32,000 nt of DNA from Vibrio alginolyticus NBRC 15630 = ATCC 17749 (lineage in GTDB: Bacteria; Pseudomonadota; Gammaproteobacteria; Enterobacterales; Vibrionaceae): positions 990,001-1,022,000 of the forward strand of contig NC_022359.1 in the NCBI RefSeq assembly GCF_000354175.2. Reading direction: 5' to 3'. Positions 1,658-19,657 of this stretch are shown piece by piece. The position numbers were made by a program, and so were the translations under genes. The notes under the pieces were generated by a model. That model worked only from the letters and a program-made list of their open reading frames with translations. It had not been told where the DNA came from and did no database searches. Within the stretch, counting starts at the first letter, position 1. Each line of letters starts with the position of its first letter.

Positions 1658-1675
1658 CCCATTACTGAAACCATC

Positions 1676-1706
1676 AAGCAGCCAGTGAAGACTGGCTGCT
1701 TTTTTC
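1676..1706 (+). terminator. Rho-independent terminator/attenuator hairpin between tssC and tssE
   Basis: Perfect 11-bp stem aagcagccagt / actggctgctt (1676-1686 / 1691-1701) with a GAAG loop, followed by a T run to 1705. It ends 13 nt before the tssE ATG. Confidence 0.65.
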
Positions 1707-1718
1707 GTAGGACCGCAT

Positions 1719-2129
1719 ATGGAAAAAGGTTACCGTCTTTTAGAGCGGATCGAGCTAGGAGAACCAAAAAACTGCTACGAGAAAGTGGTGTCTCATAAGC
1801 ATTTGATTGAATCCATTCACTCGCATCTCGCTGACTTGTTGAATACGCATTCCGGCAACGCAATGATCGACAATGAGTATGGTCTGCCAGATTTTAACGA
1901 CGTACTTTCTAACAACACAAACCTCGTTCGCCATATTCAAAAAAACATTACGTCAACCATAGAACGCTTTGAGCCCCGACTGCTTAATGTCGAGGTTCAT
2001 TACCGTGAAGATCACCATAATCCATTACAACTCGGCTTTGGTATTCGCGGCGAAGTTTCCCATAACGGCGGTAAAGTCCCAATGTCGATCGATGTCTACA
2101 TGGGAACCGACGGCCAATTTAACGTTTAG
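1719..2129 (+). CDS. tssE: T6SS baseplate subunit TssE (gp25-like)
   Basis: 136-aa ORF with gp25/GPW-like character (LLERI..., SIHSHLADLLNTHSG, IERFEPRL). Canonical position between tssC and tssF. Confidence 0.9.
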   Translation: MEKGYRLLERIELGEPKNCYEKVVSHKHLIESIHSHLADLLNTHSGNAMIDNEYGLPDFNDVLSNNTNLVRHIQKNITSTIERFEPRLLNVEVHYREDHHNPLQLGFGIRGEVSHNGGKVPMSIDVYMGTDGQFNV

Positions 2130-2139
2130 TAGGTGCCAC

Positions 2140-3888: not shown

Positions 3889-4883
3889 TTAACACACTTT
3901 CTGATAAGTCGAATGAGTTTAGTTTCTACCAAGCGGTGTTGCTGTTAGAGAAACACTACCAGCTGGAGCCAAACTCAAACTTTGTTGCCGTGGGCGAGAA
4001 CAAATACTTCCACCAAGAACGAATTGAGTTCAGCGTGTCGCCAAACTTGTGCTTTCCAAAGAGTGATATGGATTTTATTACTCATATGGAAAGAAACGGA
4101 CAGCAATATTCACGTATTGAGACGAACTTTCTTGGCTTGCATGGTTCAAGCTCGCCCCTACCTGCGTCTTACACTGAGAAACTCGTCGGTCGTGATCCCG
4201 ATGATAACCCAGTGAAGGACTTCTTCGACTTTTTCCACAACCGCTATACAAGCTTACTGTATCGTGTTTGGAAGAAATACCGATATCACGTGCAGTACAA
4301 AAGCGGGGCGAGCGATGCGTTTTCTGGGCGCATACTGCATTTGGCTGGTCTGTCTAGCGTTATGCAAGATTGTGAAGTAGCGGAGTTAGATCGAGCGAAA
4401 GTTCTGTCTTACGTGAACCAGTTATCTACGCGTACACGCTCACCCAAGCTTATTTCCGGTATTGTTTCGCACTACTTTTCACTGCCGAATGTGCGAATCG
4501 AAGAATGGGTTTATCGGCGGGTCGAGATTGCAGAAAGCCAACGTAACAAACTCAACCGCTCCAATTGTATATTGGGGCAAAGCTTACACTTGGGACAAAG
4601 CATTGCGGATTTGAACGGCAAGTTTAACTTGTGTATCGACAACATTGATTTTGAAACGTTTAAGCAGTTTTCCTACGATGGTGAGTTACATAAGACGCTG
4701 GTGGGCTTGATGCGCTTTATTCTGCGTGACCCAATGTCGTGGGACCTAAAGTTGACAGTTAACCTAGACAGTATTCCAGAAAACAAACTGGGTAATGGAG
4801 AAGGGAACCAACTAGGTCAAACGTTCTGGCTTGGCAACCCAGGTGATAAAGACGCCAAAATTCGACTTATCGGAAGCATATAA
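3885..4883 (+). CDS. tssG: T6SS baseplate subunit TssG
   Basis: 332-aa ORF translationally coupled to tssF. The N-terminus FSFYQAVLLLEK is typical of TssG, and size and position fit. Confidence 0.9.
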   Translation: MINTLSDKSNEFSFYQAVLLLEKHYQLEPNSNFVAVGENKYFHQERIEFSVSPNLCFPKSDMDFITHMERNGQQYSRIETNFLGLHGSSSPLPASYTEKLVGRDPDDNPVKDFFDFFHNRYTSLLYRVWKKYRYHVQYKSGASDAFSGRILHLAGLSSVMQDCEVAELDRAKVLSYVNQLSTRTRSPKLISGIVSHYFSLPNVRIEEWVYRRVEIAESQRNKLNRSNCILGQSLHLGQSIADLNGKFNLCIDNIDFETFKQFSYDGELHKTLVGLMRFILRDPMSWDLKLTVNLDSIPENKLGNGEGNQLGQTFWLGNPGDKDAKIRLIGSI

Positions 4884-4887
4884 GAAA

Positions 4888-4916
4888 GCCGCTCAACGAG
4901 CGGCCCTTTATGTTTT
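4888..4916. terminator. Hairpin terminator between convergent tssG and the Lrp-family gene
   Basis: Stem gccgctc (4888-4894) / gagcggc (4898-4904), followed by cctttatgtttt on the plus strand. It lies between two convergent stop codons (4883 and 4938). Confidence 0.5.
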
Positions 4917-4937
4917 CCTCAAAGAGGTCAGAAAAGC

Positions 4938-5390
4938 TTAACGACTGATCGGCTGATGCAGTACAACGGTAGTATCAAGCCTTTGAATGCCGTTAAATGA
5001 TTCAATTTCATTACAAAGATGATGAATAGACTGCAGGTCGGGCGCTTCAATTAGGGCAATAATATCAAAGTTGCCACCAACAACGCTCGTTAAGCGAACC
5101 TCAGGAATTTCTTTAAGTGCATTCGTTACATCATTCTTCTTACCCTTTTCACAAGAAATCAGTAGATAACTAGCGGCTTTTCGCCCTTCATTTTCTACAC
5201 GAATCTGTGCGGTATAGCCTTTGATAATACCGGTCTTTTCTAAACGATTAATTCTTTCTGCTACTGCTGTTCGAGACAAACCAATGTTTCGGGATAGATT
5301 CGCAATCGACTCTCGCCCATTCGACAATAGACTTGAAAGTATTTTTCGATCTAATTTATCTAAACCTTGTAAAGTCATGTTTGAAATCAT
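4938..5390 (-). CDS. Lrp/AsnC-family transcriptional regulator embedded in the T6SS cluster
   Basis: 150 aa. N-terminal HTH_AsnC pattern (LDKLDRKILSSLLSNGRESIANLSRNIGLSRTAVAERINRLEKTGIIKGY) and a C-terminal RAM/AsnC_trans_reg-like half. Co-directional with tssM and 31 nt downstream of it. Confidence 0.9.
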   Translation of the reverse strand: MISNMTLQGLDKLDRKILSSLLSNGRESIANLSRNIGLSRTAVAERINRLEKTGIIKGYTAQIRVENEGRKAASYLLISCEKGKKNDVTNALKEIPEVRLTSVVGGNFDIIALIEAPDLQSIHHLCNEIESFNGIQRLDTTVVLHQPISR

Positions 5391-5421
5391 GTGTTCTGCC
5401 TATTTTGTTTTTATATTGTTA

Positions 5422-8400
5422 TTAAATCGACTCAGGGAGCGTAAAGTTATACAGCTCAGCAAGAGTGAATGGGTTTTTCTGTGTCAACGGAGTGATGCGT
5501 AAGCTCAAGTCCCTCCCTGACACTTTTATGTCACTGACAAAGCTGCCGTTATGAGTGTTTGTCAAGGTCGAGTCACCTAGCAATCTGTATATCGCCCATT
5601 GACCACTCTTATTTAAAACGTGCTGTCTGCCTTCATCGGTTACATCCTGGAGTGTGATACTAATATTGAAGTCACCATTTTGCGGTGGCCATGCCATTTC
5701 ACGAATGCGGCTTGGACCGTGGTAGTAACTTATATTGGTATCTGCAATTTTTAAGCTCGCTCTAATCGCACTAGAATCAAGATCGAGTACTCTTGCACTA
5801 AACGGAATATGAACGCGGTTAGTGCTTTTATTAATTAATGTGTCTCGAATAACGTTATAGTTACGCAGTTGCACTAACAGAGCCGGAGAGATTGGCATCG
5901 TCTCGCCATCCACCTGTTTTGGCGTCCACAAATTGGTATCGTAGAACGGTGCAAAATTTTTCTGAATAAATGTGTCTAACAAGCCACCTGAAGCAAACAG
6001 TAATTCAAAATCTTCAATTGAGATTTCCTCGGTCGCTGTTAGATCAAATGGGTATCGTCCCAGCCCTATCTCTTTAAACTTGGTGTAAATCTCGCTGTAC
6101 CATTGGGTTTGAATGCCTTTAGCGGACTCTTTAATCATGACTGACCAGCTTTGTTGAACCACATCTAACAACCAGCTACGAACGGGTTCCGGTGATTTTT
6201 GGGCAATCTGTTTAAGTTTTATTAATGGGTCAGCTTCACTGCTGTTCATTCGATGCTGAGCTGCCGCTAGCGCCGCCATTTGCGGGTCAGGTGCATCAGC
6301 TATGTCTTTCATATATGTGCGAACACGGCTTAACGCAGCTACGGTCTCATCCCAAGGAGTAGGGGAGTTTGGTGTTTCACTGACCTGAAGTTGGTTTAAT
6401 AAGTGAAAAGCTTGTTCAACACGTTTCATCAACAAGTAATCAGGCTTAACTACTTCCTCTACTGCGTCTGATGCGGAGTCTGCCGCTGCCACGAGTTTCG
6501 GGTCTAGCTTTGAAATCAGAGCATTTTTTTCACCAACGGGTGAAAATTGTGTGTTGGCATAGACCTGCTTCAGTACGGTTGTCATTGGTGAAGAAGGGCC
6601 CGAGATTAAGTCTATCGCGTTCGTTAGATCGCCGACATTGTCATAGTTCTGGACTTTTAGTTCACTCAGCGCATTGCGCCAATTACTGATGTAGTCGTCA
6701 GTATATTTTTTACGTACTTCCTCTTTGAAGGCTTCTTGTTCTTCACTAGTAGGAATAACGTGTTGTGACAGACCTAAAACCCAGTTGTCACTGATGACTT
6801 GTTGTGACATTAGGTCCACGCGTGGTCGATAAAAAGTGCTAAAGCCAGTGGAGGTATAGATCTTATCTACGATCAAGCGTTCACTATCGATTGGTGTGTT
6901 GAATACATTGCTAAACTCAAAACCCACAGCTCGTTGCAGATCTAGGGTTCCTAAATCAATCGAATTTGCTTCGTTTAAAATGCCTGCATAAACGAGATCA
7001 ACATTCGAATTTGCTAGCAATGAGCGACGTGTTGCGCGAACAAGATCCATATTGATATCAATTGGATCAAACTGCGTGCGAAAGTAAGCGTCCAAATAGC
7101 GCATCGCCTGATTGACGACGTCACTTTGGTTGCTCAAATCGTTCATCATTTGGAGAGTTTGATGACGCAAAAAACGGATATCACGCTTTGTTGGATCGTT
7201 TAGCATTAGATACCCCTTCAATAGAGGTAAAGCGCGTGTAAAAGTGTTTTGATTTTGTGTCAGTTGTAGACGGTAACCTTTCTCAATGAGAGGTATCAAC
7301 TGTTGAGCAACGTCCTTAAGTAATGCTTCGTAAGCGATGCGAGTGCTTTGACCCAAACGGCTAATGTTGAGTGGTAATATCTCTTCATCCAAAGCCTTAG
7401 AACCTTTAAGCCACGCCCCATAAGAAGGCTCTATTGCTTTCGTCGCCTTCGCTAAAAGCTCATTGAATTTTGCATCTTGCTCTACTTGTGATTTGTCATC
7501 GATACTCAAGAGTTGATTCATCACATGTAAGTTACTGTCTAATGTCGTGAAAAAGAAGTAACTGCCCCCAGTAAGCAGGATAATAGAGCCGAGTATTGCC
7601 AAACGGCTTTGCCTCTGAATTAGACGAAGATACGTCTTGTTTTCGCCCGCAAAGTCGCTTTCCGGCAATATTTGTGAATCAATCAGAAAACGAGAGAAAT
7701 AAGGCGTTTCTGTTAACTGAGTATGCTCTGACGCGATAATAGGTAAGTTGAAGTAATTACTACAACTTTTTGCAAGTAAATTGTACTTGCGACCGCCTTG
7801 CAGACTCGAACTAAAGAAAATCTCACGGATGTCTAGTGAATAGACACCGTTGTTAACATCACATAGACGCTCAAGCACATAGCAGACTTCAGACTGACAT
7901 AGCTCAAACTGCTTAGGGAAAGCGAGTATTGCTTGTTTCTCATCAATGTCCGTTGAATTAGCGGATGCATCTAGCGCATTACTTTCAAGCACTCTCACTA
8001 GATTTCGATAGCTATCGCGGTAGTACTCTGCAAATACACCTTTGGCTTCTTTTAGTGGGATAGAGAGGAACTCAACACGTGTCTTGAGAGAGCTAAAGTG
8101 CATGTATTCTTTAAAGCCATCTAACTTGTCTAGCTTTGACATAATCAAATAGATTGGCAATGCTGAAGACGTTTTAGAGTTGATGGTACTCAAGCGCGCC
8201 AATAACGACGAAATGGTGTACTCTTTTTGCTCTGGCTCAGAGACGATCATGAACTCGAAATCGGTGAAGAATAGACACCCAGAAAATGGCTTTCGAGGTC
8301 GATGATGAATAACTTCTTCAATGAACGTATTCCATAAAGAAGCATCACTGCTTGATACTTCCTGGAACACTAAGCGTTGGTCTGGTTTGATGTATACAGC

Positions 8401-8811
8401 GCTGTCAGATTCGTACCATTCAAAAAAGTCATTCTTAGCGGTTCTAGTGCGATCCATCGGTTTGATTGCACTAGAATTAAATAAAAATTGACGTCGCCCT
8501 GACCCTTTATTACCAAGCATCAGGTAAATTGGTTTCTTGCCTGAGTTAGCAAGAAGAGGCTGGATAACCATAGAAAGTGCTTCTTCCTCGGTTTCCAAAT
8601 GTTGAGCTTTAGCGTTGTTCTTTTTCTTCAACCATAATGTGAATTGAAAAGTGACGTAAACAATGGCGATAGCACCAAGGGTCAGCCAAAGATAAAGTTG
8701 ATCGATTTCGTCAAGAAAAAGCAGATAAATAGTGGTGATAATTACAGCCACTAAAAACATCAATATAGTAGAAATCACCACTGGATTTCTAAACAGTTTT
8801 TGTTTGAACAT
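5422..8811 (-). CDS. tssM: T6SS membrane complex subunit TssM (IcmF-like)
   Basis: 1129 aa. Two N-terminal TM helices, a P-loop-like segment (LMLGNKGSGRRQFL), a third TM helix (LAILGSIILLTGGSYFFFTTL), and a long periplasmic IcmF-like C-terminal region. Confidence 0.93.
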   Translation of the reverse strand: MFKQKLFRNPVVISTILMFLVAVIITTIYLLFLDEIDQLYLWLTLGAIAIVYVTFQFTLWLKKKNNAKAQHLETEEEALSMVIQPLLANSGKKPIYLMLGNKGSGRRQFLFNSSAIKPMDRTRTAKNDFFEWYESDSAVYIKPDQRLVFQEVSSSDASLWNTFIEEVIHHRPRKPFSGCLFFTDFEFMIVSEPEQKEYTISSLLARLSTINSKTSSALPIYLIMSKLDKLDGFKEYMHFSSLKTRVEFLSIPLKEAKGVFAEYYRDSYRNLVRVLESNALDASANSTDIDEKQAILAFPKQFELCQSEVCYVLERLCDVNNGVYSLDIREIFFSSSLQGGRKYNLLAKSCSNYFNLPIIASEHTQLTETPYFSRFLIDSQILPESDFAGENKTYLRLIQRQSRLAILGSIILLTGGSYFFFTTLDSNLHVMNQLLSIDDKSQVEQDAKFNELLAKATKAIEPSYGAWLKGSKALDEEILPLNISRLGQSTRIAYEALLKDVAQQLIPLIEKGYRLQLTQNQNTFTRALPLLKGYLMLNDPTKRDIRFLRHQTLQMMNDLSNQSDVVNQAMRYLDAYFRTQFDPIDINMDLVRATRRSLLANSNVDLVYAGILNEANSIDLGTLDLQRAVGFEFSNVFNTPIDSERLIVDKIYTSTGFSTFYRPRVDLMSQQVISDNWVLGLSQHVIPTSEEQEAFKEEVRKKYTDDYISNWRNALSELKVQNYDNVGDLTNAIDLISGPSSPMTTVLKQVYANTQFSPVGEKNALISKLDPKLVAAADSASDAVEEVVKPDYLLMKRVEQAFHLLNQLQVSETPNSPTPWDETVAALSRVRTYMKDIADAPDPQMAALAAAQHRMNSSEADPLIKLKQIAQKSPEPVRSWLLDVVQQSWSVMIKESAKGIQTQWYSEIYTKFKEIGLGRYPFDLTATEEISIEDFELLFASGGLLDTFIQKNFAPFYDTNLWTPKQVDGETMPISPALLVQLRNYNVIRDTLINKSTNRVHIPFSARVLDLDSSAIRASLKIADTNISYYHGPSRIREMAWPPQNGDFNISITLQDVTDEGRQHVLNKSGQWAIYRLLGDSTLTNTHNGSFVSDIKVSGRDLSLRITPLTQKNPFTLAELYNFTLPESI

Positions 8812-8838
8812 AAGCCTAAAACTTCTTTAATTGTATTG

Positions 8839-10152
8839 TTATTTATTGTCAGTTTTTTCAGCTTGTAGCTGACTCAATTTATATAGGTAGATGTTCAGTA
8901 AAAGGGTTGCGCGGTCAATTTCCTTTTGCTGTGAATACTTTTCAGCGTATTCAATACGACCTAAAAGCGGGAATAACGAGTTACTGTATTCGTACGCCTT
9001 TTCAGAGTTCTTATCTACATTCTGTCTAGCTACGTTGGCAAACACCGTTCTTGCGTCTGAGAATCGCTTATAAACATCCATAAACTGGTCTTCTAAATGG
9101 GCGCTCTGTGTCAAAAAGTTTTGACGTAGTTGCTGTGCAGAAGACGAATCCGGATAGATCGCGATTAATTCATTGGTCAAGCTATCGAGCTCGCTGACGT
9201 TACTTACTTTTGCCGAGTCTAAAAACCAGTTATTCATCATAATATCGACACGATTAATGGCCTGCGTTTTCAATGACTGAGCATATTTTTTATTTTCGTA
9301 ATCTAACGAGGCGACCAAATTTACAAGTTCATTAAGTGAAGCTTGATTAATTTTTTGTTCCAATGTTCGATAACGTTGTTGCTCGTACATGAAATGTGAA
9401 CATATCGCAGTAACAATCAAACCAATAACGAAGTAGATCATAAATCGACCAGACTTTGCCGGTGATGCTTTCTCTTGGCTATTTAGGTTGGGTGATGACA
9501 CCGGTGCTGGAGAGGGAGACACATTCACTTTAATTTCAGGTGCCTTCTGCGTTGCTGCAGGAGCGCTAGTGTTGGCTTGTTTTTTCTCGCGTAACTCAGC
9601 CGCAATCTGTTGTTCTTTTATCTGCTCAATCCATTGATTCAAAATACGGCGAATGCGACCTAATGACGGCGCTTCAATACCGTAATGAAGACGAAGCTCT
9701 TCCTCAATCCTCAAGCATAATTGATGTGCTGCCTCTATCAATGGAAGCTCTTCTGGTAACGCCCGATGCTTATTAATTCGTTTTTCAGTATGCTCTACCA
9801 TCCATTCAATAGCGCTCATTCGTGCCTTTGACTTTGAATGCTCTGGATACGCGTTGAACCAATATACGACACACACATCAAGTATTGAGTTTAACCCTTC
9901 AACAAGGCCTCTTAAGCCGTCGTTATAGGTTGATGCAACGGTAAAGTAACAGCAACAACGTAGGTCTTTCGCTTGGGTACTCAAGATCTTTTTTGAGAGT
10001 GTTTGAACCGTTTTCCACGAGACTCTCCCTGTGACTTTATTCAGGTTGTTTATTTGACGTTTAATTTCGTCAAAATCCTCAGAACCATTAGGATTAGAGC
10101 CGCTTGGGTTATTTTCATCGATTGGTCTTCGAGCGAAGTCGGTAAAAAACAT
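8839..10152 (-). CDS. tssA: ImpA_N-domain TssA-family protein with an internal transmembrane helix (TagA/VasL-like architecture)
   Basis: 437 aa. N-terminal ImpA_N-like region (IDENNPSGSNPNGSEDFDEIKRQI..., LRCCCYFTVA), a Pro/Ser-rich linker, one hydrophobic helix FMIYFVIGLIVTAICSHFMY (aa 237-256, nt 9385-9444), then a helical domain of about 180 aa. Located directly upstream of tssM. Confidence 0.75.
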   Translation of the reverse strand: MFFTDFARRPIDENNPSGSNPNGSEDFDEIKRQINNLNKVTGRVSWKTVQTLSKKILSTQAKDLRCCCYFTVASTYNDGLRGLVEGLNSILDVCVVYWFNAYPEHSKSKARMSAIEWMVEHTEKRINKHRALPEELPLIEAAHQLCLRIEEELRLHYGIEAPSLGRIRRILNQWIEQIKEQQIAAELREKKQANTSAPAATQKAPEIKVNVSPSPAPVSSPNLNSQEKASPAKSGRFMIYFVIGLIVTAICSHFMYEQQRYRTLEQKINQASLNELVNLVASLDYENKKYAQSLKTQAINRVDIMMNNWFLDSAKVSNVSELDSLTNELIAIYPDSSSAQQLRQNFLTQSAHLEDQFMDVYKRFSDARTVFANVARQNVDKNSEKAYEYSNSLFPLLGRIEYAEKYSQQKEIDRATLLLNIYLYKLSQLQAEKTDNK

Positions 10153-10655
10153 AAGGAAAGTTCCAACTGATCATATAGAAGTATTAAGTTATATAGGATT
10201 TCACTACTGTTATATTAAATTATAAGCAGTGCACATCTGCCGCAATTCTATAGACAAAATAAGCGGATTAGATAATAAAAATTCATTAAAAGAAATTAAA
10301 TTACTTTTAGTGTGATCTTTGTTCATAATATTAATATCAATAGTTAAGTCTATTTATAAGAAGAAACTTATATATGAAGATGAGAACGTTGATTAAAAAG
10401 TAACTAAATTGTTATCGGAGATTACGTTTTGTTCAATTAGCAATCAAATTCTGTTACTTCTATTTAAATAGAAAGATTTACTGTCTCGTCACTTAATCTG
10501 TAGTCGGTTCTTTAGTTTTTGTTTGTAGGTAAAACAACCAACCTGATAGTTGAAATGTATTAAATTATAGGTGTTTTTTTAGGCTTATTGAAAAAGAGAA
10601 TATAATTGATATCTTTCGCCTCTAAGTAGAATATCGGTTTTCCTAGAGGGACGAA
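10153..10655. promoter_or_regulatory. AT-rich divergent control region between the tssA-tssM-lrp operon (-) and the omp-tagH-tssJKL operon (+)
   Basis: 503 bp with no ORF, very AT-rich, and flanked by divergent start codons at 10152 (-) and 10656 (+). Individual promoters could not be pinned down by eye. Confidence 0.6.
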
Positions 10656-11255
10656 ATGCTAAAACCAAGTCAAATTGGGCTGATTTCAGCCATGTGTCTA
10701 TTTTCTTCTGTTGCAATGGCAAAAGGGGAGCGATATGGACTCTCTACCAGTATGTTGACTATCGATAGCATTAAATACGATGAAGGTAAAAGTGGTGAGC
10801 AGGATACGCTTAGGTTCGGCTTGGTTCATACTCGTCCTATTGATGAAAACAATAACCGTTGGCGTTGGTGGTTAGGGCTAAACTATCTAGCAGAAGATAT
10901 TGAAGCGCCAGCAAACGGCTTATATCAAGAAGCGACGAACTATGAACTTCGTGTTGTTCCTCAATATGCGTTGACTTCTTGGAGTGTTTTCACGCCATAT
11001 GTTGGTGCGGGCTTGTCTGTCGGTTACTCGCAATATTCTAATCGTTGGCAAGTAGACCAAGAGGGCTATCGTTATGAGAGTGTTGAAGATATCGACCAGT
11101 TTGAGTTAGGTGCGGTTGTGACCCTTGGTAGTGCTATAAAGTTAGGCAGTAATCCTGACGCCCATATACAAATTATCCCGCAGGCCTCTTATATCCTTCC
11201 GGTTGTAAATGATGGAATTGGTGGGCTTGAACTATCAGTTTCTTTGCTCTTTTGA
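10656..11255 (+). CDS. Small outer-membrane beta-barrel protein (OmpX/OmpW-size), first gene of the tagH-tssJKL operon
   Basis: 199 aa. Signal peptide ending AMA|KG, alternating hydrophobic beta-strand pattern giving about 8 strands, and a C-terminal LLF with aromatic terminal residue typical of BAM substrates. GAGGGA RBS upstream. Confidence 0.7.
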   Translation: MLKPSQIGLISAMCLFSSVAMAKGERYGLSTSMLTIDSIKYDEGKSGEQDTLRFGLVHTRPIDENNNRWRWWLGLNYLAEDIEAPANGLYQEATNYELRVVPQYALTSWSVFTPYVGAGLSVGYSQYSNRWQVDQEGYRYESVEDIDQFELGAVVTLGSAIKLGSNPDAHIQIIPQASYILPVVNDGIGGLELSVSLLF

Positions 11256-11264
11256 GGTTCGTAA

Positions 11265-12758
11265 ATGTACTCAAATCAGCTAGTTTTATTTATCTCAAAG
11301 TGTCCAGAGGAATACACCGGTGCAAAGCATATTGAAATGCCTGAAAGTGGTGGTTCGATAGGTCGTTCCCCAAGCTGTAGCGTGTCTTTAGCCGATCACA
11401 ACCGCTTTATATCGGGCACTCATTGTTTGCTCAGCGTGTATGGAGATACCTACTATATAAGTGACGTATCAACTAACGGCACAATGGTAAATGGGAATAA
11501 AATACTAAAAAATCAACCCGTTGCGATAGTTGATGGCGACATCATTTCTTTAGGGCAATATGAGATTGGTGTTTCTCTTGAGCACGTTACCTCAACACTA
11601 GACATCGCCGCTGATATTGCTCCTGAGCGAGTATCTAGCGATCCTCTGGTTAGTCTAGGAGATGCGGTTGTCGAAGAGGAAGAAAAAGTCGGTGCCTTAG
11701 AAGATTTGTTTATGGAGACTAAACAGGATGACATTGATTGTCATGATCCTGTTGCTCACCTTAACTTTTCGATGCAGCGAGATGACGATTACTTAATTCG
11801 TGATAATGAGCGTACAGATTCTGAACAACCTAGAACCGTGGAAAGCACGCGTCAGGTGGTCGATGACAGTTTCAGCATATATTCCGAATTCGATCAGCCA
11901 AGCCTAATCCCTGAAGACTGGATGGCTGCGGAAACCAAGAGTAACGCATCAGTCAATGATGCATTAGCGCCAGAAAGCGGTAAGGCACATAGAGCCGATA
12001 TTGCCTCAGCTGAGGTGATGCAACCTGGCACGGTAGCCCCAGATAGCACGATTCAAAGACAACATCGTACGCATAATGTTACTGAGATGGTCGTAGAACA
12101 GGCTAACACAGGGTCAAAATGGGAAGAGATGACCCAATCTTTTACGCCTTCTCCTAACACTAATCAGCAACTTCAAATACCTACGGCAGAGCACGCGATA
12201 AACAGTACGACGAAAGCACAAGTCGATACTGATGCGGCCGTTTGCTCTCAAGATATAGCGCAAGCGTTTTTTGATGGCTTGGGTATTCGAAACCCAGAGT
12301 TGATGACAAACGAGGCGCAGTTATTCAAGCAAATGGGCACTTGCTTGCGTTTATGTATTGATAACCTACAGAAAGAGTTGCACGAAGTGGAATCGTTAAA
12401 AGATGAGCAGAGTGCGAGTGAGGCTAACTCGAACATTGCAGAGCTAATGCTTACTTTGAATAGTCAGCAATTACTGGCTCCAAATGAACTGGTTGAACAA
12501 ATGCTCGATGAGCTGAACGACCACCAAGTTATGTTTAACAAAGCACTGAATGAGCTCATTTTAGAACAGTCAGAAACGAACGATCCCGTAGCATTTGCTA
12601 ACAGGGTCGCTAGCCAGTCTTTGTTCTCAACTAAGTCAAAGCTGTGGGCCGAATACCTAGATTTCTACACTAATAATCGTCGCCTGCTTAATGAAACATC
12701 CTTAAAAGGGCTGATTAAGAAAAACTATAACAAAGTGATTAAGGGAAACCATGCGTAG
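11265..12758 (+). CDS. tagH: T6SS-associated FHA-domain protein (TagH/Fha)
   Basis: N-terminal FHA signature residues (SIGRS..., SGTHC, STNGTMVNG), then a long acidic low-complexity linker and a conserved TagH-type C-terminal region. Located upstream of tssJ. Confidence 0.88.
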   Translation: MYSNQLVLFISKCPEEYTGAKHIEMPESGGSIGRSPSCSVSLADHNRFISGTHCLLSVYGDTYYISDVSTNGTMVNGNKILKNQPVAIVDGDIISLGQYEIGVSLEHVTSTLDIAADIAPERVSSDPLVSLGDAVVEEEEKVGALEDLFMETKQDDIDCHDPVAHLNFSMQRDDDYLIRDNERTDSEQPRTVESTRQVVDDSFSIYSEFDQPSLIPEDWMAAETKSNASVNDALAPESGKAHRADIASAEVMQPGTVAPDSTIQRQHRTHNVTEMVVEQANTGSKWEEMTQSFTPSPNTNQQLQIPTAEHAINSTTKAQVDTDAAVCSQDIAQAFFDGLGIRNPELMTNEAQLFKQMGTCLRLCIDNLQKELHEVESLKDEQSASEANSNIAELMLTLNSQQLLAPNELVEQMLDELNDHQVMFNKALNELILEQSETNDPVAFANRVASQSLFSTKSKLWAEYLDFYTNNRRLLNETSLKGLIKKNYNKVIKGNHA

Positions 12759-13251
12759 TATCGCCGTATTACTCGGATTTGCCATGTTGTCCGGTTGTTC
12801 CATGTGGGATCAATTTAAAGAGTCCACTGGTATCACACCAGAAACTTCGTCGATTGAATTGGTTATTGAGGCATCACCTGTACTCAATGTGAGAAATGGG
12901 GGCCAGTCATCTCCAGTTATTCTCCGTCTTCACGAATTAAGTTCGCCAGTATTGTTCCGAAGCTTAGATTTCTTTGCCTTGTTTGAGAGCGATAAAGCGT
13001 CGTTGGGTGATGAGTACATCAAACGTTACGAATATCAAATACAGCCAGGTGGAAAAGTTCATGAAATGCTAACTCTAGACCCTGACACTCGTGCCGTCGG
13101 TTTTTCAGTGGCTTTTCGTGATATTGATGGTTCGTCTTGGCGAAAAGTGGAAGTTATTGAAGAGAAGAGCGAGTACTACATCAAGCTCAAGTTAGAGGGC
13201 AGTGAGTTAATTTCTGATAACACTCGCGGCATTGAACAGGTTTACTTTTAA
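12751..13251 (+). CDS. tssJ: T6SS outer-membrane lipoprotein TssJ
   Basis: 166 aa. Lipobox LSGC (MRSIAVLLGFAMLSGCS). Size and position between tagH and tssK. Overlaps the tagH stop by 8 nt. Confidence 0.88.
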   Translation: MRSIAVLLGFAMLSGCSMWDQFKESTGITPETSSIELVIEASPVLNVRNGGQSSPVILRLHELSSPVLFRSLDFFALFESDKASLGDEYIKRYEYQIQPGGKVHEMLTLDPDTRAVGFSVAFRDIDGSSWRKVEVIEEKSEYYIKLKLEGSELISDNTRGIEQVYF

Positions 13252-13262
13252 GGGATAGAAAC

Positions 13263-14588
13263 ATGTCTTTATACAATCCAGTTGTTTGGCAAGATGGAAT
13301 GTTCATGAAGCCGCAGCATTTTCAACAACTCGATCGTTCGCAAAGTAAACTATCGAGCCTACTGAGTGCCAATGCATCGCCTTTGCATTGGGGAATTAAA
13401 CGTTTAGAAATCAACTCTCAGTTACTAGCACTGGGTAAAATCGGTATTACTCGTGCTGAAGGTATTTTACAAGACCGGACACCATTTGAGCTTCCGTTGC
13501 TTGCCGAGTTGCCTGAAGTGAAAGATGTAGATCCTTCGATTGCCGATAAAGTCGTTTATTTGTGCTGTCCGTTACCATCGGAACGCTCTGAGTTATTTGG
13601 TACCAAAAAAGACGGTGCGCGCTATACGATGGAATCTCAAGAAGCGGTTGACGCTTGTTATGATTCGGAAGACATGGCAAATATCGTCGTCGGTAAGCTT
13701 AACTTTTGCTTAATGTACGATCATGAAGATAAGAGTGCTTACACGTCTATTCCGATCTTAAAGATCTCAGAAGTGAAGCCTGATGGCAGCGTGATCTTAG
13801 ATGATAGTTTCATTCCTACCTGCATCGATATTCATGCGTCGACAGTACTGAGTAAATTTGCGACCGAGTTTGCTTCTATGTTGAAGCATCGCGCGGAATC
13901 GATAGTTCAGCGATTAGGGGTGGTGGATCAACAAGGCGTATCATCGGTTTCTGACTTTATGCTATTGCAAGCGCTCAACCGATACGAACCCTTGTTTTGG
14001 CATTTCGCAAGCACAGAAGCTGTGCATCCTGAGTCTTTGTATCGAATTCTTCTTCAGGCAGAGGGTGAGCTTTCGACGCTGTGCTCAACGACACGCCGAC
14101 CTATTGAGTTTACGAAGTACAATCATGGTGATCTTACTAGCTGTCTTTCTCGCGTCCTAGACAGTGCGAAAATGACATTGAGCGTGATGTCTGAGCAAAG
14201 AGCAATTCCACTGACCTTAAAAGATCAGAACTATGGCATCAGAACGGCAGCAATCCCTGACAATAAGATCATTGATACGACAACCTTTATCCTCGCAGTT
14301 AAAGCCGACGTGACCTTGGATGTTCTGCATACCCAGTTTGTCAGCCAAACGAAGATCGGTTCTATCGATAACATACGTGACTTGATTAACCTTCAACTGC
14401 CTGGGATTGAGATCAAACCAATGCCAGTTGTGCCACGCGCGCTGCCGTATCATGCTGGCTACACCTATTTCGAGCTCGATAAAACGGGCGAAGAGTGGAT
14501 GGCGTTGAAGAACACTGCTGCGATTGCGATTCACGTTGCGGGCGATTTCGCTAACTTATCATTGCAACTTTGGGCCGTTCGTCTATGA
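13263..14588 (+). CDS. tssK: T6SS baseplate subunit TssK
   Basis: 441 aa. Hallmark N-terminus PVVWQDGMFMKPQHFQQLDR. Confidence 0.94.
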   Translation: MSLYNPVVWQDGMFMKPQHFQQLDRSQSKLSSLLSANASPLHWGIKRLEINSQLLALGKIGITRAEGILQDRTPFELPLLAELPEVKDVDPSIADKVVYLCCPLPSERSELFGTKKDGARYTMESQEAVDACYDSEDMANIVVGKLNFCLMYDHEDKSAYTSIPILKISEVKPDGSVILDDSFIPTCIDIHASTVLSKFATEFASMLKHRAESIVQRLGVVDQQGVSSVSDFMLLQALNRYEPLFWHFASTEAVHPESLYRILLQAEGELSTLCSTTRRPIEFTKYNHGDLTSCLSRVLDSAKMTLSVMSEQRAIPLTLKDQNYGIRTAAIPDNKIIDTTTFILAVKADVTLDVLHTQFVSQTKIGSIDNIRDLINLQLPGIEIKPMPVVPRALPYHAGYTYFELDKTGEEWMALKNTAAIAIHVAGDFANLSLQLWAVRL

Positions 14589-15376
14589 GTTACGCAGAAA
14601 CCGACGTCACCGTAGTCTTATTCCAACCAGAGCCTGGCAAACCAATGGAGGTAATGCCAGCGCCTGACTTGTCGAGAAACATCGCAGTACAAGATCTATC
14701 TATCGACAACATGGGTATTAACCCGCTAGTGGACCAGTTCTCATGGTTGATCGCCAGTCTGTCTTGTATGTCTTCGATCCCTTGGCTTGATGACCCGATG
14801 CCATTTCGTGAACAAGTGGCACGTGAGATTCGAAAAGGTGAACGAAAACTTAATGAAATGGAGCTCGATCGTGCTTCGGTTCTTGTTATTCGTTACTGCT
14901 TGTGTGCGGCGATTGATGAATCTGTTTGTCGACAAGAGTGGGGGGCAAATAGTCACTGGAGCCAGAACAGCTTACTGTCTGAATTCCACAACGAGACATC
15001 TGGTGGTGACAAGTTTTTCGTTATTCTCGACCGCTTAAAAGCCGACCCTCGCAAATACCGTCACGTTATAGAGTTTCTCTATTTATTGCTTCAACTTGGT
15101 TTCCAAGGCAAGTACGGCCGTGAAGAGCGTGGCAACGAAAAGCTAGCGGAAATTGGCAGCACCATTTATCGATTAGTGCGAGATGACCGCCTAGCAGAAC
15201 AAGAAAAAGTTTCTTTAATCAACCTTAAAGCTAAATATCTAAAGAAGCCGTTAAAAAGGGTAATTTCACCCAAGCTGATCTTAAGTCTTAGTGCGATGAC
15301 GTTTGCGCTTATGTATGCGGCAACCTACATCGTCATAGACTTAAAATTTCAGCAACTGCTTGAAATGTATAGATAA
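14585..15376 (+). CDS. tssL: T6SS membrane subunit TssL (DotU-like), without a peptidoglycan-binding extension
   Basis: DotU-like sequence (IRYCLCAAIDESV, LLQLGFQGKYG) and a single C-terminal TM helix (LILSLSAMTFALMYAATYIVI). ATG 14585 overlaps the tssK stop (ATGA). The ORF-track TTG at 14570 is less likely. Confidence 0.9.
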   Translation: MSYAETDVTVVLFQPEPGKPMEVMPAPDLSRNIAVQDLSIDNMGINPLVDQFSWLIASLSCMSSIPWLDDPMPFREQVAREIRKGERKLNEMELDRASVLVIRYCLCAAIDESVCRQEWGANSHWSQNSLLSEFHNETSGGDKFFVILDRLKADPRKYRHVIEFLYLLLQLGFQGKYGREERGNEKLAEIGSTIYRLVRDDRLAEQEKVSLINLKAKYLKKPLKRVISPKLILSLSAMTFALMYAATYIVIDLKFQQLLEMYR

Positions 15377-15523: not shown

Positions 15524-16981
15524 ATGGGCGTAACAGTTGGTGCGAATGGACTTTCGATAGTTCATAAAGGCTCAGGTGGTGAAGCGAATGCAACGCTCCC
15601 AGATGTTTGTTTAACTAAGGTCGGCAAGCCAGTCGTCCCTATCCCTTATGGCAACAATGCTAAATCAGCAGACCTTGCTGGTGGGACTACGACAGTCTCT
15701 ATGGATGGCGGTAACAGTGTCGCTATCAAGGGCAGTACGTTCTCAAAAAGTACCGGCGATGCGGGCGGTGACAGAAAAGGCGTTTCCTCAGGCACGATAG
15801 AAGCCGAAGCAAAATTCATTTCAGCCTCACCAACAGTCAAGTTTGAAGGCAAGGGCGTATGTCGCCTGTCCGATCAAATGACCATGAACAAAGCCAACAC
15901 TATGTGTTTGGGTGGCGCACAAAACCCATCGGTTTCTGTGACTGAAGAGCAGGAAGGGACGTATACGCTGGATATAGAATGCAAATATCCAAATGGGCTC
16001 CCTTACTCTAATGCAAAATTTTCTTTAGTCGAACCTTCAGGTGCTGTCATTGGGAGTGGAGTGCTGGACTCTAGCGGAAAAGCATCTGTTAATGGTCTCG
16101 CTCTAAAAGAATGCAGGTTAGTGCTCAGCGAAACTCAAGACTCTTACACCCCGAACCAATCTTTAGCTGAAAATATTGTGACGGAAACTTACCCTGATCC
16201 GAATGATTTTTGTACGTTTGTCGCAGGTCGCCGCTCACCATTTTGGGAAGATCGTGTTGGGGTTGCTAATGACTGGGGGATATTGATGTCCCCATCCTTC
16301 AGTGATGATGACTTTAAAGACATTGTGTTAGAGCAAAGCCGTATATCGTCTCCTTATGCGATTAGTCAAAATCACTCTAAAGACTTTTCTGATGCTTATG
16401 TTTCGGCACTTTATCACATCCAAACTGATACTACTGCGCTAGAGAAATATGAACCTTTAGTTGAACTGCTCTTGGAGCAAGTGCACGAAAATGGCGATAT
16501 ATTGAGAGTCTTATATCAAGCTGATGTGTTTGAGCCTCCCTATGAATTATTAGCGAAGCTTCGCTTTTTAGGGACTGGGAATACTGTGAAGTATTTGCAG
16601 TTTGTTTTATGGACGTTGATAAACAATCAAATCTGTTCATACATCGATGAGCTAAACAGTGAAATCATCGGTCGTTTAGATTTCATACAAAGCCAAGCTT
16701 CTGCAAGATCGTTGAGTTCTGTTGAAGAGGGTATAAACGGTTATAAAAAAGCACTTAACCACTTCAAACAAGCACTTCCTGACGTCATTAGCCAAATTTT
16801 CGAAACCAAAAATGACACCCTAATTTCTATATCGGCAATGGCCCTTGGGAGTACCGTTAACATAGCGAGCCAATCTAGCTTTGCTACTAATTTAGGTAGG
16901 GTTAATGCGGTGGTGTACACGAAGTCAAACAACTTGAACCGCCCATCATTTGTCACTTTTGACGATAACTTTTCTGACTAG
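15524..16981 (+). CDS. PAAR-like (DUF4150-type) T6SS spike-tip protein with a beta-sandwich linker and a C-terminal domain of about 280 aa of unknown function
   Basis: The N-terminal 135 aa or so (VGANGLSIVHKGSGGEANATLPDVCLTKVGKPVVPIPYGNNAKS...VKFEGKGVCRLSDQMTMNKANTMCLGG) match the DUF4150 PAAR-like pattern. They are followed by GTYTLDIECKYPNGLPYSNAKFSLVEPSGAVIGSGVLDSSGKASVNGL (transthyretin/CarboxypepD_reg-like pattern). The remainder has no motif I recognise. ATG 15524 is preferred over TTG 15518. Confidence 0.85.
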   Translation: MGVTVGANGLSIVHKGSGGEANATLPDVCLTKVGKPVVPIPYGNNAKSADLAGGTTTVSMDGGNSVAIKGSTFSKSTGDAGGDRKGVSSGTIEAEAKFISASPTVKFEGKGVCRLSDQMTMNKANTMCLGGAQNPSVSVTEEQEGTYTLDIECKYPNGLPYSNAKFSLVEPSGAVIGSGVLDSSGKASVNGLALKECRLVLSETQDSYTPNQSLAENIVTETYPDPNDFCTFVAGRRSPFWEDRVGVANDWGILMSPSFSDDDFKDIVLEQSRISSPYAISQNHSKDFSDAYVSALYHIQTDTTALEKYEPLVELLLEQVHENGDILRVLYQADVFEPPYELLAKLRFLGTGNTVKYLQFVLWTLINNQICSYIDELNSEIIGRLDFIQSQASARSLSSVEEGINGYKKALNHFKQALPDVISQIFETKNDTLISISAMALGSTVNIASQSSFATNLGRVNAVVYTKSNNLNRPSFVTFDDNFSD

Positions 16982-16993
16982 GACATTTAAATC

Positions 16994-18997
16994 ATGGATG
17001 CAGTTTTTCCGATAGCGCAACGAGAAGGTGACGCTTACTACACGCTCAGTGATTTTACGAAATTGTTTGATCAAGCTAAGAGCGGTCGTTATTTAATAGG
17101 ACAAGGGTACGGTTGGCATAGTGGCATTCACTTAACATCAAAAATGTTACCGTGGGGGAAAGGGCTCAGACCTATTCAAGCGATGCTTGATGGAAAAATA
17201 GTGGCATTTCGCATAAATCCTGATTACCTAACATCAACGTACCAAGAGCAAGAGTTTAAGTATAGTAATAACTTTGTGCTTATCGAGCATGAGGCTGTAA
17301 ACCCCGAAGATAATGAAGATGTATTTAAGTTCTATACACTTTATATGCACCTTGCGCCACCTTCAGATATTGGCGCCAATTCATCTATAACCACGCGTTA
17401 CCGTTTACAAGAAGCGAGAAATGTACGCACTTTCAAACATAGTGATGTGCCTACTAATTCTGGTGAAAAAAAACAGTCGATGTCTAAAGGAACATTACTT
17501 GAATACCTGTATGCAGAAGAGAAGGAGACCCATCCATACCAGATCGACAAAAATACCTACAAAATGATAAAGTGCCGTGTGGTAGAGAATGGTAAATCGG
17601 CAAGTGGTAGCGAAAAAGCACTGTTAAACAAGATTGTTTGGTTTGCTTCGGGTCTCAATAGTGACTTTGACATTTTAGAAGATTCCTCTGCTGTCCTATC
17701 AGAACCAGTTTCAGAACCTAAATGGATGTCGGACAAGGCGGCAATGATTAGGGACGGTAGTGTGGTTTCTTTACTCCCACTCCTATTTAGAGAGGGGATA
17801 AAGGTTTCAGCTGGGGAAGATATCGGTTACATGGGACTGCATGAGTACAGTAACGATGCAATTGGAACTAAGAAAGAAGATAATCGTGTGCATATCGAGA
17901 TGTTCTCTTTTGAGGAGCCGCCCGAATTTTTCAAAAAACAGATTTCTCCCAAAAATGCGGAAGAAAATCCACTTGTTGTTCTCGATGGGGCCGATAGTAG
18001 CGGTGCCGTTGATATGAGTAATTCGTTTATTCAGCAATTACTTGAATCTGTGACAGAAGATCAAGTAACGGACTTCTCCTCGTTCACTGCTCGCGATGCC
18101 AAAGTATACTTAGACGGTAAGCGTAAACACTTTGAGCGATTTATTGTGAAACATCCTACAGATTGGCATACAGAGTCGTCACAAAGTCTTTATGAATCAA
18201 TCCATCAGACCGCAAAGGAAGCTCTAGATATTAAGTGCTCCGCTGGTTTTGTGACTATAGAGGACTACCGTAACTCCCCATGGCGCGATCAAGTGATGGA
18301 TAGCTTTGATCTTTTCTCACAATTCGAACTGGAAAGAGCAGATAAGTTCTCATGGATGCAAGATTTACATGGTGATTTGCAACTAAGCGATGATAAGAGC
18401 CTTTGGCATTATTGGCCTTTTACATTGAATGTTACGAAATTAAGTGAATGTAAATTATCAATTGACCACGAGTTTATAGGTGAACTTGAAGGTAGCAGAA
18501 AAAAAGGATATGTTCCTGACCCTAAGAATAGTAAGAGTGGGGTAACTATTGCTACTGGCTTCGATTTAGGAGCAAGAAACATAGTTGATTTGAGAAAACT
18601 CGAACTACCGAGTGACCTTATAACAAAGCTCACCCCATATCTAGGTATGAAGAAATTTGAAGCAGAATCTTTTTTGAAAAAAAATCCGTTAACTATTAAT
18701 GAAGATGAGTTGCTTTTAATTAATCACGTAGTTAAAAAGCATGAAACTGAAAAAATCATAGCGTTGTATAATAAAAATTCTCAGATTGAATTTGCCTGCT
18801 TACCAAGTCAAGCTCAAACTGTAATTGCTTCCGTTGCCTATCAATATGGTTATCTACCTCGTGAAACTAGAAAGTTCTGGTTTCAAGCTGTAAACCAGAA
18901 GTGGGAAGAAATGTATGATAATCTAATGGACTTTAGGGATCTATATCCAACACGCAGAAAAAAAGAAGCGTTATTACTTAAGGAAATTATTGAATGA
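16994..18997 (+). CDS. Putative T6SS cargo effector: M23/LytM-like peptidase region fused to a T4-lysozyme/pesticin-like muramidase domain
   Basis: The N-terminal half aligns by eye with the lysostaphin/LytM motif order: GWHSGIHL (H42-x3-H46), DGKIVAF, FYTLYMHL (H119), VSAGEDIGYMG, RVHIEMF (H300, E302). The C-terminal 180 aa or so, FIGELEGSRKKGYVPDPKNSKSGVTIATGFDLG, parallels the T4L E11/D20/T26 region ([21 protein letters not shown]). No signal peptide. Confidence 0.7.
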   Translation: MDAVFPIAQREGDAYYTLSDFTKLFDQAKSGRYLIGQGYGWHSGIHLTSKMLPWGKGLRPIQAMLDGKIVAFRINPDYLTSTYQEQEFKYSNNFVLIEHEAVNPEDNEDVFKFYTLYMHLAPPSDIGANSSITTRYRLQEARNVRTFKHSDVPTNSGEKKQSMSKGTLLEYLYAEEKETHPYQIDKNTYKMIKCRVVENGKSASGSEKALLNKIVWFASGLNSDFDILEDSSAVLSEPVSEPKWMSDKAAMIRDGSVVSLLPLLFREGIKVSAGEDIGYMGLHEYSNDAIGTKKEDNRVHIEMFSFEEPPEFFKKQISPKNAEENPLVVLDGADSSGAVDMSNSFIQQLLESVTEDQVTDFSSFTARDAKVYLDGKRKHFERFIVKHPTDWHTESSQSLYESIHQTAKEALDIKCSAGFVTIEDYRNSPWRDQVMDSFDLFSQFELERADKFSWMQDLHGDLQLSDDKSLWHYWPFTLNVTKLSECKLSIDHEFIGELEGSRKKGYVPDPKNSKSGVTIATGFDLGARNIVDLRKLELPSDLITKLTPYLGMKKFEAESFLKKNPLTINEDELLLINHVVKKHETEKIIALYNKNSQIEFACLPSQAQTVIASVAYQYGYLPRETRKFWFQAVNQKWEEMYDNLMDFRDLYPTRRKKEALLLKEIIE

Positions 18998-19392
18998 ATT
19001 ATAATAGACTATTAATTACTTTGGCTGTGATTTGGTCAGGTTTGACTAGTGCAGCTTCAATGACGGATATTTATGAATTGTTAGACTTTACATCATTCCC
19101 TAACTCACTGAACCCCAAAAGCATCGAAGAAAGGCATTTTTCTGATTTTCAAGGTGAATTCAAACTTGCAGTACCAAAAATAACAAAAGATGAGATTGTA
19201 ATAGATGATGACCATTGGTATTACAAGATTGAGTTAATGGAAATTAAAGGTGATAATGTGTACCTTTGCTTTCATGATAAATCTAAGGTCGGCACTTATG
19301 ACTCTGTGCAACCTATTGTTGTTAGAAGATATGGGAATGATTTTGTTGCTTTAGCATTGGACCCAACTTCTTCAAACCAAGAGTGTAAGTAA
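18994..19392 (+). CDS. Small secreted protein, candidate periplasmic immunity protein for the upstream effector
   Basis: 132 aa. Sec signal peptide (LLITLAVIWSGLTSAAS). The ATG overlaps the effector stop (ATGA at 18994-18997), the classic effector-immunity coupling. Confidence 0.65.
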   Translation: MNYNRLLITLAVIWSGLTSAASMTDIYELLDFTSFPNSLNPKSIEERHFSDFQGEFKLAVPKITKDEIVIDDDHWYYKIELMEIKGDNVYLCFHDKSKVGTYDSVQPIVVRRYGNDFVALALDPTSSNQECK

Positions 19393-19657
19393 TTATACCG
19401 ATTTAGACTTTGGGTTTTAATGTAGAAGAAATAAAATAGCTGTTTATTTAGTAATTAGTTTTATACAGTGATTACGGGCAGATATATTCCTATAAGGAAT
19501 AGTCACTATTAATAAATGTAATTAGAGTTGGAGTCAATTTGGTTAATGTTTCATATGTTCCTTAACTTTACTCAGATTACATCCTTACTATTTTTCTTCT
19601 CTTCCGTTCTAAGTAAATGCTGCGTGTGAGCAAAGCTCAGTTGTATTCACATGTAAT

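Follow-up and report, generated by a model that had tools for sequence, protein, structure and literature searches.

We analysed a window of 32,000 nucleotides (nt) from Vibrio alginolyticus NBRC 15630 (ATCC 17749; contig NC_022359.1, positions 990,001 to 1,022,000), in which an open reading frame (ORF) encoding 667 amino acids (aa) at positions 16994..18997 of the forward strand follows a type VI secretion system (T6SS) gene cluster and a gene for a PAAR-like spike protein. The product is very probably a subclass I WHIX effector and an allele of the experimentally characterised Va01435, carried as cargo at the end of a T6SS1-type cluster; it joins an N-terminal WHIX domain, a T6SS loading and secretion module, to a C-terminal muramidase domain of the pesticin type. 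The ORF is annotated as "pesticin C-terminus-like muramidase", its product is identical to AGV19809.1 of the same strain (V. alginolyticus NBRC 15630/ATCC 17749), and the same 667-aa sequence forms a multispecies Vibrio database entry that is present on 58 contigs. The identity, domain boundaries, conservation and synteny of the effector are established in the present analysis. A first-pass annotation, made from the letters of the window and a list of its ORFs, had described this protein as a carrier of two cell-wall hydrolase domains; the ORF and the motifs that it singled out, namely, H42-S-G-I-H46 (nt 17117-17131), LYMHL with H119, and H300-I-E302, are all found in the sequence.

Domain architecture of the effector

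The C-terminal domain (aa 490-664; 18461..18985, forward strand) clearly corresponds, by sequence comparison, to a muramidase of the pesticin/T4-lysozyme type with the catalytic residues intact. The Pfam Pesticin profile (PF16754) matches aa 490-638 over positions 2-156 of its 156 (E=2.3e-44; 151.5 bits against a cutoff of 25.8), and in a sequence search of the PDB, the pesticin crystal structures (4aqn) match aa 498-664 (E=6.9e-14). In the PDB alignment, E499 (nt 18488-18490), T518 (18545-18547) and D524 (18563-18565) pair with pesticin E178, T201 and D207, which have been reported as important for catalysis (PMC9927483). The T4-lysozyme/pesticin-like region had been recognised in the first-pass annotation together with E499 and T518, correctly as it turns out; D509, in contrast, had been mistaken for the catalytic aspartate, and this residue aligns with pesticin S188, whereas D524 is the equivalent of D207. 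Two other proteins, Yersinia pestis pesticin and V. cholerae VgrG3cp, contain the same E/T/D muramidase domain and are each paired with a dedicated periplasmic immunity protein. What sets the three apart is how they are delivered: pesticin carries a TonB-dependent domain that binds FyuA, VgrG3cp is fused covalently to VgrG, and the effector described here has the WHIX cargo domain.

The WHIX domain, named for a conserved WHxxxH motif, has been defined from the V. alginolyticus 12G01 effector WP_005373349.1, with conserved regions at aa 31-126 and 271-476 (Fridman et al. 2025, PMC12135965). We assign aa 1-476 of the NBRC 15630 effector (16994..18421, forward strand) to this domain because they are 99% identical to the homologue P0007, which contains the C-terminal peptide of WP_005373349.1 given in the supplement of PMC12135965, and because this identity stops right after W474-P475-F476, exactly at the published boundary. 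In the dataset of the same paper, V. alginolyticus entries have WHIX at 1-477 and a DUF4150 protein encoded upstream, and the 65% identity that we find to the homologue from V. coralliilyticus BAA-450 likewise agrees with the paper. The motif itself, W41-H42-S-G-I-H46, lies at 17114..17131 of the forward strand (codons cat agt ggc att cac at 17117-17131), and W41, H42 and H46 are kept in 118, 125 and 127, respectively, of 134 representatives drawn from the 50%-identity clusters of the WHIX family. The C-terminal part of WHIX (aa ~340-476; 18011..18421, forward strand) is a mainly helical subdomain with conserved H387, W391 and W474-P475, and the AlphaFold2 (AF2) model of aa 1-485 has a pLDDT of 86.8 and a pTM of 0.88. 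The first-pass annotation had read the N-terminal half as a free-standing endopeptidase domain; instead, the N-terminal 476 residues are the published WHIX, for which the demonstrated role is secretion by the T6SS through loading onto the spike (PMC12135965).

By profile search, 1246 members of the family were detected among 1.84 billion cluster representatives at E<=1e-3. When aa 1-485 were used as the query, the same N-terminus was found, at 93-100% identity, in V. alginolyticus and its relatives on varied C-termini, namely, GH19/chitinase-like, VgrG3-like-C, GH108 with PG_binding_3, and pesticin. Such a constant N-terminus combined with swapped C-termini is the hallmark of polymorphic toxins, in which the delivery module stays the same. 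WHIX has been found to be almost always fused to peptidoglycan-targeting toxins, and 448 unique WHIX proteins with a "Pesticin lysozyme-like" C-terminus have already been listed (Table 1 of PMC12135965). The statement that bifunctional cell-wall effectors are rare, which accompanied the first-pass annotation, is out of date in view of these numbers. Among 57 representative WHIX proteins that we inspected (alignment A5), nine have EF-hand matches in Pfam inside or just past the WHIX region, and one has an Anthrax_toxA (adenylyl-cyclase-like) C-terminus, that is, a toxin with a non-peptidoglycan target on the WHIX chassis.

In its overall plan, WHIX followed by a C-terminal peptidoglycan hydrolase and a downstream immunity gene, the NBRC 15630 effector matches Va01435 (WP_005373349.1) of strain 12G01, to which it is 99% identical over aa 1-476 and which occupies the same site, at the end of the T6SS1 cluster after the PAAR1 gene (PMC4549250, PMC12135965). 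Secretion of Va01435 depends on T6SS1; Va01430 is its partner in an effector/immunity pair, and PAAR1 (Va01440) is its upstream neighbour. NBRC 15630 homologues "in the same synteny" were noted in the same work (2015, PMC4549250). The two alleles differ in the toxin, which is GH19/chitinase-like in Va01435 and of the pesticin type in NBRC 15630, and in the immunity gene. The swap point lies exactly after W474-P475-F476 and coincides with a drop in GC content, which falls at the WHIX/toxin junction from ~0.42 in WHIX to ~0.33 and stays at 0.30-0.35 through the sequences for the pesticin domain and the immunity protein and the spacer after them (18400-19600). This drop suggests a horizontally exchanged toxin-immunity cassette. 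Compared with the subclass I pesticin-type WHIX effectors already described (PMC12135965), the architecture is identical, with no difference seen in the features compared. Awe1 of Aeromonas jandaei, a subclass II or "double-blade" effector, likewise has a peptidoglycan-targeting toxin flanking its WHIX core. It differs in carrying a further, genuine M23 domain on the N-terminal side of WHIX and in having a second, upstream immunity gene; the NBRC 15630 effector has neither.

The M23-like core of the WHIX domain

When profiles are compared, WHIX appears to contain a diverged, split core of the M23/LytM type, in which H/H/E stands in place of H/D/H. In the first half of this core, the WHxxxH motif aligns with the HxxxD motif of M23, with His substituted for Asp, and Y117-M-H119-L (17342..17353, forward strand) aligns with the YxHL motif that carries a catalytic His. 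The second half (aa 268-305; 17795..17908, forward strand) consists of the block IKVSAGEDIGYMG followed by RVH300-I-E302-MFS and was delineated by a sub-threshold Pfam M23 match, hhalign and conservation. In the hhalign pairing, H42 corresponds to the His and H46 to the Asp of HxxxD, H119 to the His of YxHL, and H300 and E302 to the first and second His of HxH. Each of these five residues is kept in 121-127 of the 134 representatives. The canonical set of M23 ligands is absent, with H46 replacing the Asp and E302 replacing the second His, and both substitutions are family-wide; the catalytic-type H119 and H300 are retained.

After excision of the insert that separates the two halves, a step guided by the M23 hypothesis itself, the WHIX core, represented by a profile of the 134 diverse representatives, matched an M23 profile of only six sequences (lysostaphin and LytM, both checked against the PDB, together with four such domains taken from subclass II WHIX proteins) with an hhalign score of 57.9 (96.1% probability, E=3e-9, 81-108 columns), compared with 12.4 +/- 3.1 and a maximum of 24.7 for 60 column-shuffled controls. 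In the un-excised alignment, aa 268-307 match M23 positions 91-122 (score 38.7, 67% probability) and aa 58-124 match positions 42-87 (score 33.0, 35% probability); these two matches are colinear, and a third one is noise. A scan of viral contigs for further M23 sequences yielded none that were usable. The M23 likeness was also noticed by others: HHpred analysis in 2015 listed Va01435 as "LytM, PG-hydrolase, lysozyme-like" (PMC4549250), and the N-terminal domain of the Aeromonas effector TseP (TseP-N) was superposed on the M23 structure 3SLU (Wang et al. 2025, PMC11893102).

Other searches failed to detect this relationship at significant levels. The Pfam M23 profile (PF01551) matches aa 264-303 only, at 12.7-13.4 bits against a cutoff of 28.7 (E=0.09-0.16), and among 34 close homologues, only 4 show so much as a match below the cutoff. 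The WHIX family profile retrieved no M23 chain among the PDB sequences at E<=10, only GH19/endolysin relatives of the variable C-termini. Foldseek comparison of the aa 1-485 model with the PDB and BFVD gave no significant match and no M23 structure, and a fragment model of aa 28-132 (pLDDT 68.7), compared with the PDB, likewise gave neither; one match annotated as SpoIIQ was non-significant (E=0.3). Thus, of the earlier suggestion that the N-terminal half is M23-like, the order of motifs and the H/H/E exchange hold up (hhalign probability of 96%), whereas the Pfam threshold is not reached and Foldseek recovers no M23 structure.

Known M23/LytM domains (lysostaphin, 4LXC; LytM, 2B0P; ShyA; NMB0315, 3SLU) have the same order and spacing of conserved blocks as WHIX, namely, H-x-G-x-[D/H], P-x-x-A-x-x-x-G-x-V, Y-x-H-L, A-G-x-x-I-G-x-x-G and H-x-[H/E]. 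WHIX differs from them by the replacement of the ligand Asp with His and of the last ligand His with Glu, by an insert of ~145 aa, possibly SH3b-like, that splits the domain, by a helical subdomain of ~140 aa that follows the core, and by its demonstrated role, which is secretion.

The insert (aa ~127-262; 17372..17779, forward strand) lies between the halves of the M23-like core, is beta-rich, with eight strands in the AF2 model, and falls within the ~150 residues that separate YMHL (117-120) from AGEDIGY (273-279). Its SH3b-like nature is plausible, though the support is only indirect and comes from related proteins: the Pfam SH3_3 profile (PF08239) matches P0157 (aa 440-470, E=1.5e-4) and P0170 (E=6e-4) directly after YMHL, in the equivalent position, SH3_3 is found at E<=0.01 in 4 of the 57 representatives (best, 6e-6), and the homologue P0260 has a precomputed SH3_3 assignment. 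The effector itself does not match SH3_3 at E<=1. Accordingly, the SH3b-like insert proposed in the first-pass annotation is present as a beta-rich insertion with weak SH3_3 similarity in homologues and without an SH3_3 match in the effector; of the three Pfam families proposed there for checking that are discussed here, Pesticin is matched (E=2.3e-44), Peptidase_M23 stays below the threshold and SH3_3 is not matched in this protein. Some subclass II WHIX proteins contain an extra insertion of ~120 aa before YMHL (aa ~285-400 of P0157 and aa ~300-420 of P0170), the pattern of which (…ATELEILEIQD…GYRFSNAKIISG…GETVWFAAL) echoes the insert after YMHL and looks like a duplication of the inserted module.

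The spike gene, the immunity gene and their surroundings

The gene directly upstream of the effector (15524..16981, forward strand) encodes a 485-aa PAAR-like (DUF4150/Tox-PAAR-like) spike protein homologous to PAAR1 (Va01440); 12 nt separate the end of this gene from the effector start. The PAAR-like domain is confined to aa 24-129 (Pfam PF13665, E=1.6e-35) and is followed by a C-terminal extension of ~350 aa without a Pfam match, the terminal tail of which is better conserved than its middle; gene calls in six other assemblies likewise give 485 aa. A full-length PAAR-like protein, 61-93% identical, is encoded directly upstream of the WHIX gene in seven Vibrio loci, and PAAR1 is secreted by T6SS1 in strain 12G01 (PMC4549250). 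Because the PAAR-like gene adjoins the WHIX gene in these seven loci and the tail is conserved, the carrier of the effector is most likely the PAAR1-type protein. The last ~25 residues of the PAAR-like protein (VVYTK.NN.NRPSF..F.D.FSD) are a candidate docking tail for WHIX. In other Vibrio loci and in those of Photorhabdus, Enterobacter and Pantoea, the upstream neighbour of the WHIX gene is VgrG. The Enterobacter and Pantoea loci (L013, 4396-4935, and L010, 4964-5530) contain a gene for a DUF3828 (Tai3-like immunity) protein between VgrG and a subclass II WHIX effector, a placement that matches the published arrangement of an upstream immunity gene for the N-terminal blade.

The T6SS linkage surmised from the sequence is borne out by a cluster of core genes identified by Pfam and NCBIfam matches (182..15376, both strands) together with the PAAR-like gene. 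TssC, TssE, TssF and TssG are encoded on the forward strand, followed by an AsnC-type regulator, TssM and TssA on the reverse strand, and the cluster continues on the forward strand with an outer membrane protein (OMP)-like ORF, FHA, TssJ, TssK and TssL. The genome encodes a T6SS (TssC/E/F/G/M/A/J/K/L), and the effector gene adjoins that of a secreted-spike-type component, both being among the features by which WHIX effectors are recognised. The AsnC/Lrp-type regulator (4938-5390, reverse strand) and the ORF resembling an OMP beta-barrel (10656-11255, forward strand) are embedded among the core genes; two T6SS1 regulators encoded in the cluster have been described (2015, PMC4549250).

Downstream, an ORF of 132 aa with an N-terminal signal peptide (18994..19392, forward strand) starts within the end of the effector gene, overlapping the stop codon by 4 nt, an arrangement indicative of translational coupling. 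We consider its product the probable cognate immunity protein because of its position, its signal peptide and its strict co-occurrence with the effector, the 132-aa gene adjoining the 667-aa effector in all six of the assembly contexts listed. UniRef names the protein "Pesticin immunity protein"; the pesticin immunity family Pim (PF16765) aligns with it over nearly its entire profile (positions 12-91 of 91) yet scores below the threshold (12.2 bits, cutoff 24; E=0.2), and a PDB search with the 132-aa sequence found no relative. We also looked for this immunity gene next to other toxin alleles, a possibility rejected given that the neighbour is the 667-aa pesticin effector in each of the six contexts. 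It has no match in the locus of Vibrio sp. AND4 (L001).

Beyond the immunity gene lie two small ORFs, one of 127 aa without a signal peptide (19658-20041) and one of 136 aa with a lipoprotein-type signal (…LTSVVGC; 20245-20655), neither of which has a Pfam or PADLOC match. Both are kept downstream of the WHIX effector in Vibrio sp. AND4 (85% and 67%). We rejected them as a second immunity for WHIX, given that they are kept only in this closest relative and not in other Vibrio WHIX loci. Past ~20.7 kb, the genes are unrelated housekeeping ones; an operon for a multisubunit Na+/H+ antiporter of the Mrp/Mnh type (MnhA/B fusion, C, D, E; 26427-31415) is likewise unrelated to the effector.

Loading, toxicity and the role of the conserved site

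In the mechanism that we favour, WHIX (aa 1-476) would attach the effector non-covalently to the secreted spike, with the C-terminal tail of the PAAR-like protein sitting in the WHIX cavity. After firing, the pesticin domain (aa ~490-667; E499/T518/D524) would cleave the glycan strands of the prey peptidoglycan, and the periplasmic 132-aa immunity protein would shield kin cells. WHIX itself would descend from an M23/LytM-type metallopeptidase into which an SH3b-like module was inserted and to which a helical subdomain was appended, the constellation of H42/H46/E302 with H119/H300 remaining strictly conserved. T6SS-dependent secretion, the relation between effector and immunity protein, and the sufficiency of WHIX for secretion are taken from the literature on homologues and would hold here by analogy; that PAAR1 is the carrier, and that the metal site has a role at all, is our inference. 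WHIX has been reported to be sufficient for T6SS secretion and to bind the C-terminal tail of VgrG, binding being abolished by removal of the 14 C-terminal residues of VgrG4 (PMC12135965).

Several considerations weigh against this scheme. The experimental evidence all comes from homologues of the NBRC 15630 allele; loading through the WHIX cavity, in particular, would rest on AlphaFold models and one Awe1/VgrG4 pull-down, all of them for other proteins. The carrier could be VgrG1 instead of PAAR1. The near-invariant metal-type residues are not explained by docking alone, and given that TseP-N has been reported as a Zn-dependent amidase, the N-terminal domain may not be catalytically silent. 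The failure of both Foldseek searches to find an M23 structure adds to these points.

TseP of Aeromonas dhakensis is an amidase-lysozyme chimera (PMC11893102) and is cited as a WHIX protein in PMC12135965. Like the NBRC 15630 effector, it has an N-terminal HxxxH with further His and Glu residues, a C-terminal lysozyme, and a difference in GC content between the N- and C-terminal parts, which the drop observed here parallels; its N-terminal domain is required for secretion and VgrG binding. It differs in its GH19-like rather than pesticin-like C-terminal domain (PDB 8xcl) and in its carrier, VgrG2 rather than a PAAR-like protein. TseP-N, AHA_1849-N and PSPTO_5204-N release stem peptides from sacculi in a Zn-dependent manner, an activity that is lost on mutation of His or Glu and, in the case of TseP-N, is also abolished by EDTA (PMC11893102). 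The amidase activity of the TseP type has been demonstrated only for Aeromonas and Pseudomonas members. TseP was not found among the representatives when we looked for the residue positions published for it (H19, H23 and others), nor did another large-scale protein search, run with the WHIX alignment, bring it up; that search contributed further subclass II proteins from Photobacterium and Aeromonas hydrophila.

Under the explanation of the conserved site that survives best, and to which we would give a little less than an even chance, the M23-like core is catalytically inert, like the LytM domains of EnvC, NlpD and SpoIIQ, and the effector has one toxic activity; as part of the same reading, the His/Glu pocket would be kept as a docking socket for the spike tail or would bind peptidoglycan to position the muramidase. 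This is consistent with the findings that WHIX of Awe1 alone is not toxic in the periplasm of Escherichia coli, that WHIX is nevertheless sufficient for secretion, and that VgrG4 shortened by 14 C-terminal residues no longer binds (PMC12135965), as well as with the single immunity gene and the relatively conserved tail of PAAR1 in the locus analysed here. The substrate groove of M23 enzymes is, by its nature, presumably peptide-binding, and the non-significant Foldseek match annotated as SpoIIQ is a hint in the same direction. It is at odds with the loss of the TseP-N amidase activity on point mutation and EDTA treatment, and with the retention of both ligand-type and catalytic-type histidines, which seems to be more than docking needs.

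A dual-activity hydrolase is a possible, more doubtful explanation: WHIX would bind Zn via H42/H46/E302 and, besides its role in secretion, cleave the peptide moiety of the wall, by amidase or endopeptidase action, while the pesticin domain cuts the glycan. Each of the five site residues has a single counterpart among the M23 ligands and catalytic histidines and is kept in at least 121 of the 134 diverse representatives. Degenerate LytM factors, such as EnvC and NlpD, usually lose these residues, which WHIX keeps. H/H/E is, moreover, a competent set of Zn ligands, WHIX is nearly always joined to peptidoglycan-targeting toxins, the release of stem peptides by the three Aeromonas and Pseudomonas domains is Zn-dependent (PMC11893102), and the authors of the WHIX study leave an active role for the domain open (PMC12135965). 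As to the endopeptidase activity envisaged in the first-pass annotation, the sole enzymatic report for an equivalent domain, TseP-N, is that of a Zn-dependent amidase. Against a second activity stand the lack of toxicity of the Awe1 WHIX, the single obvious immunity gene at the locus and the sub-threshold Pfam M23 score. The activity data, furthermore, would have to be carried over from Aeromonas and Pseudomonas members to Vibrio, and TseP residues H19, H23, H109, H339, H359 and E539 could not be placed on the effector, so that the transfer depends on the citation of TseP as a WHIX protein in PMC12135965.

An unlikely combination is that the M23-derived pocket (H42/H46/E302 with H119/H300) is the "deep cavity" that grips the spike tail, here that of PAAR1, so that a peptidase groove would have been re-used as a loading socket and, freed once the effector has left the spike, might attack the prey wall as a Zn-amidase. 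If true, this would reconcile the paper that describes a secretion domain with the one that describes an amidase. That the M23 likeness is a chance match of motifs and WHIX an unrelated fold is very improbable: the Pfam M23 score, the absence of M23 chains among the PDB matches of the WHIX profile and the Foldseek results would fit this explanation, but the two un-excised hhalign scores both exceed the maximum of the 60 controls, the insert-excised core scores far higher, all five functional M23 positions coincide with near-invariant WHIX residues, and the HHpred call of 2015 and the superposition of TseP-N on 3SLU are independent of our alignment.

The combination of WHIX, a pesticin-like lysozyme and an immunity gene is already in print, and so are its placement with the T6SS1 cluster of V. 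alginolyticus, the resemblance of the N-terminus to LytM (2015) and a proposed second, amidase activity (2025). The weapon found in NBRC 15630 is, accordingly, of an already described type and is ordinary apart from the dispute over enzymatic activity of its loading domain, on which two papers from 2025 clash, one describing a non-toxic secretion domain (PMC12135965) and the other a Zn-dependent amidase (PMC11893102). What the present analysis adds is that the five M23-equivalent residues are nearly invariant across the family and that H/D/H is systematically replaced by H/H/E. The disagreement between the two papers can therefore be put directly to the test in an experimentally accessible Vibrio, through a small number of point mutants.

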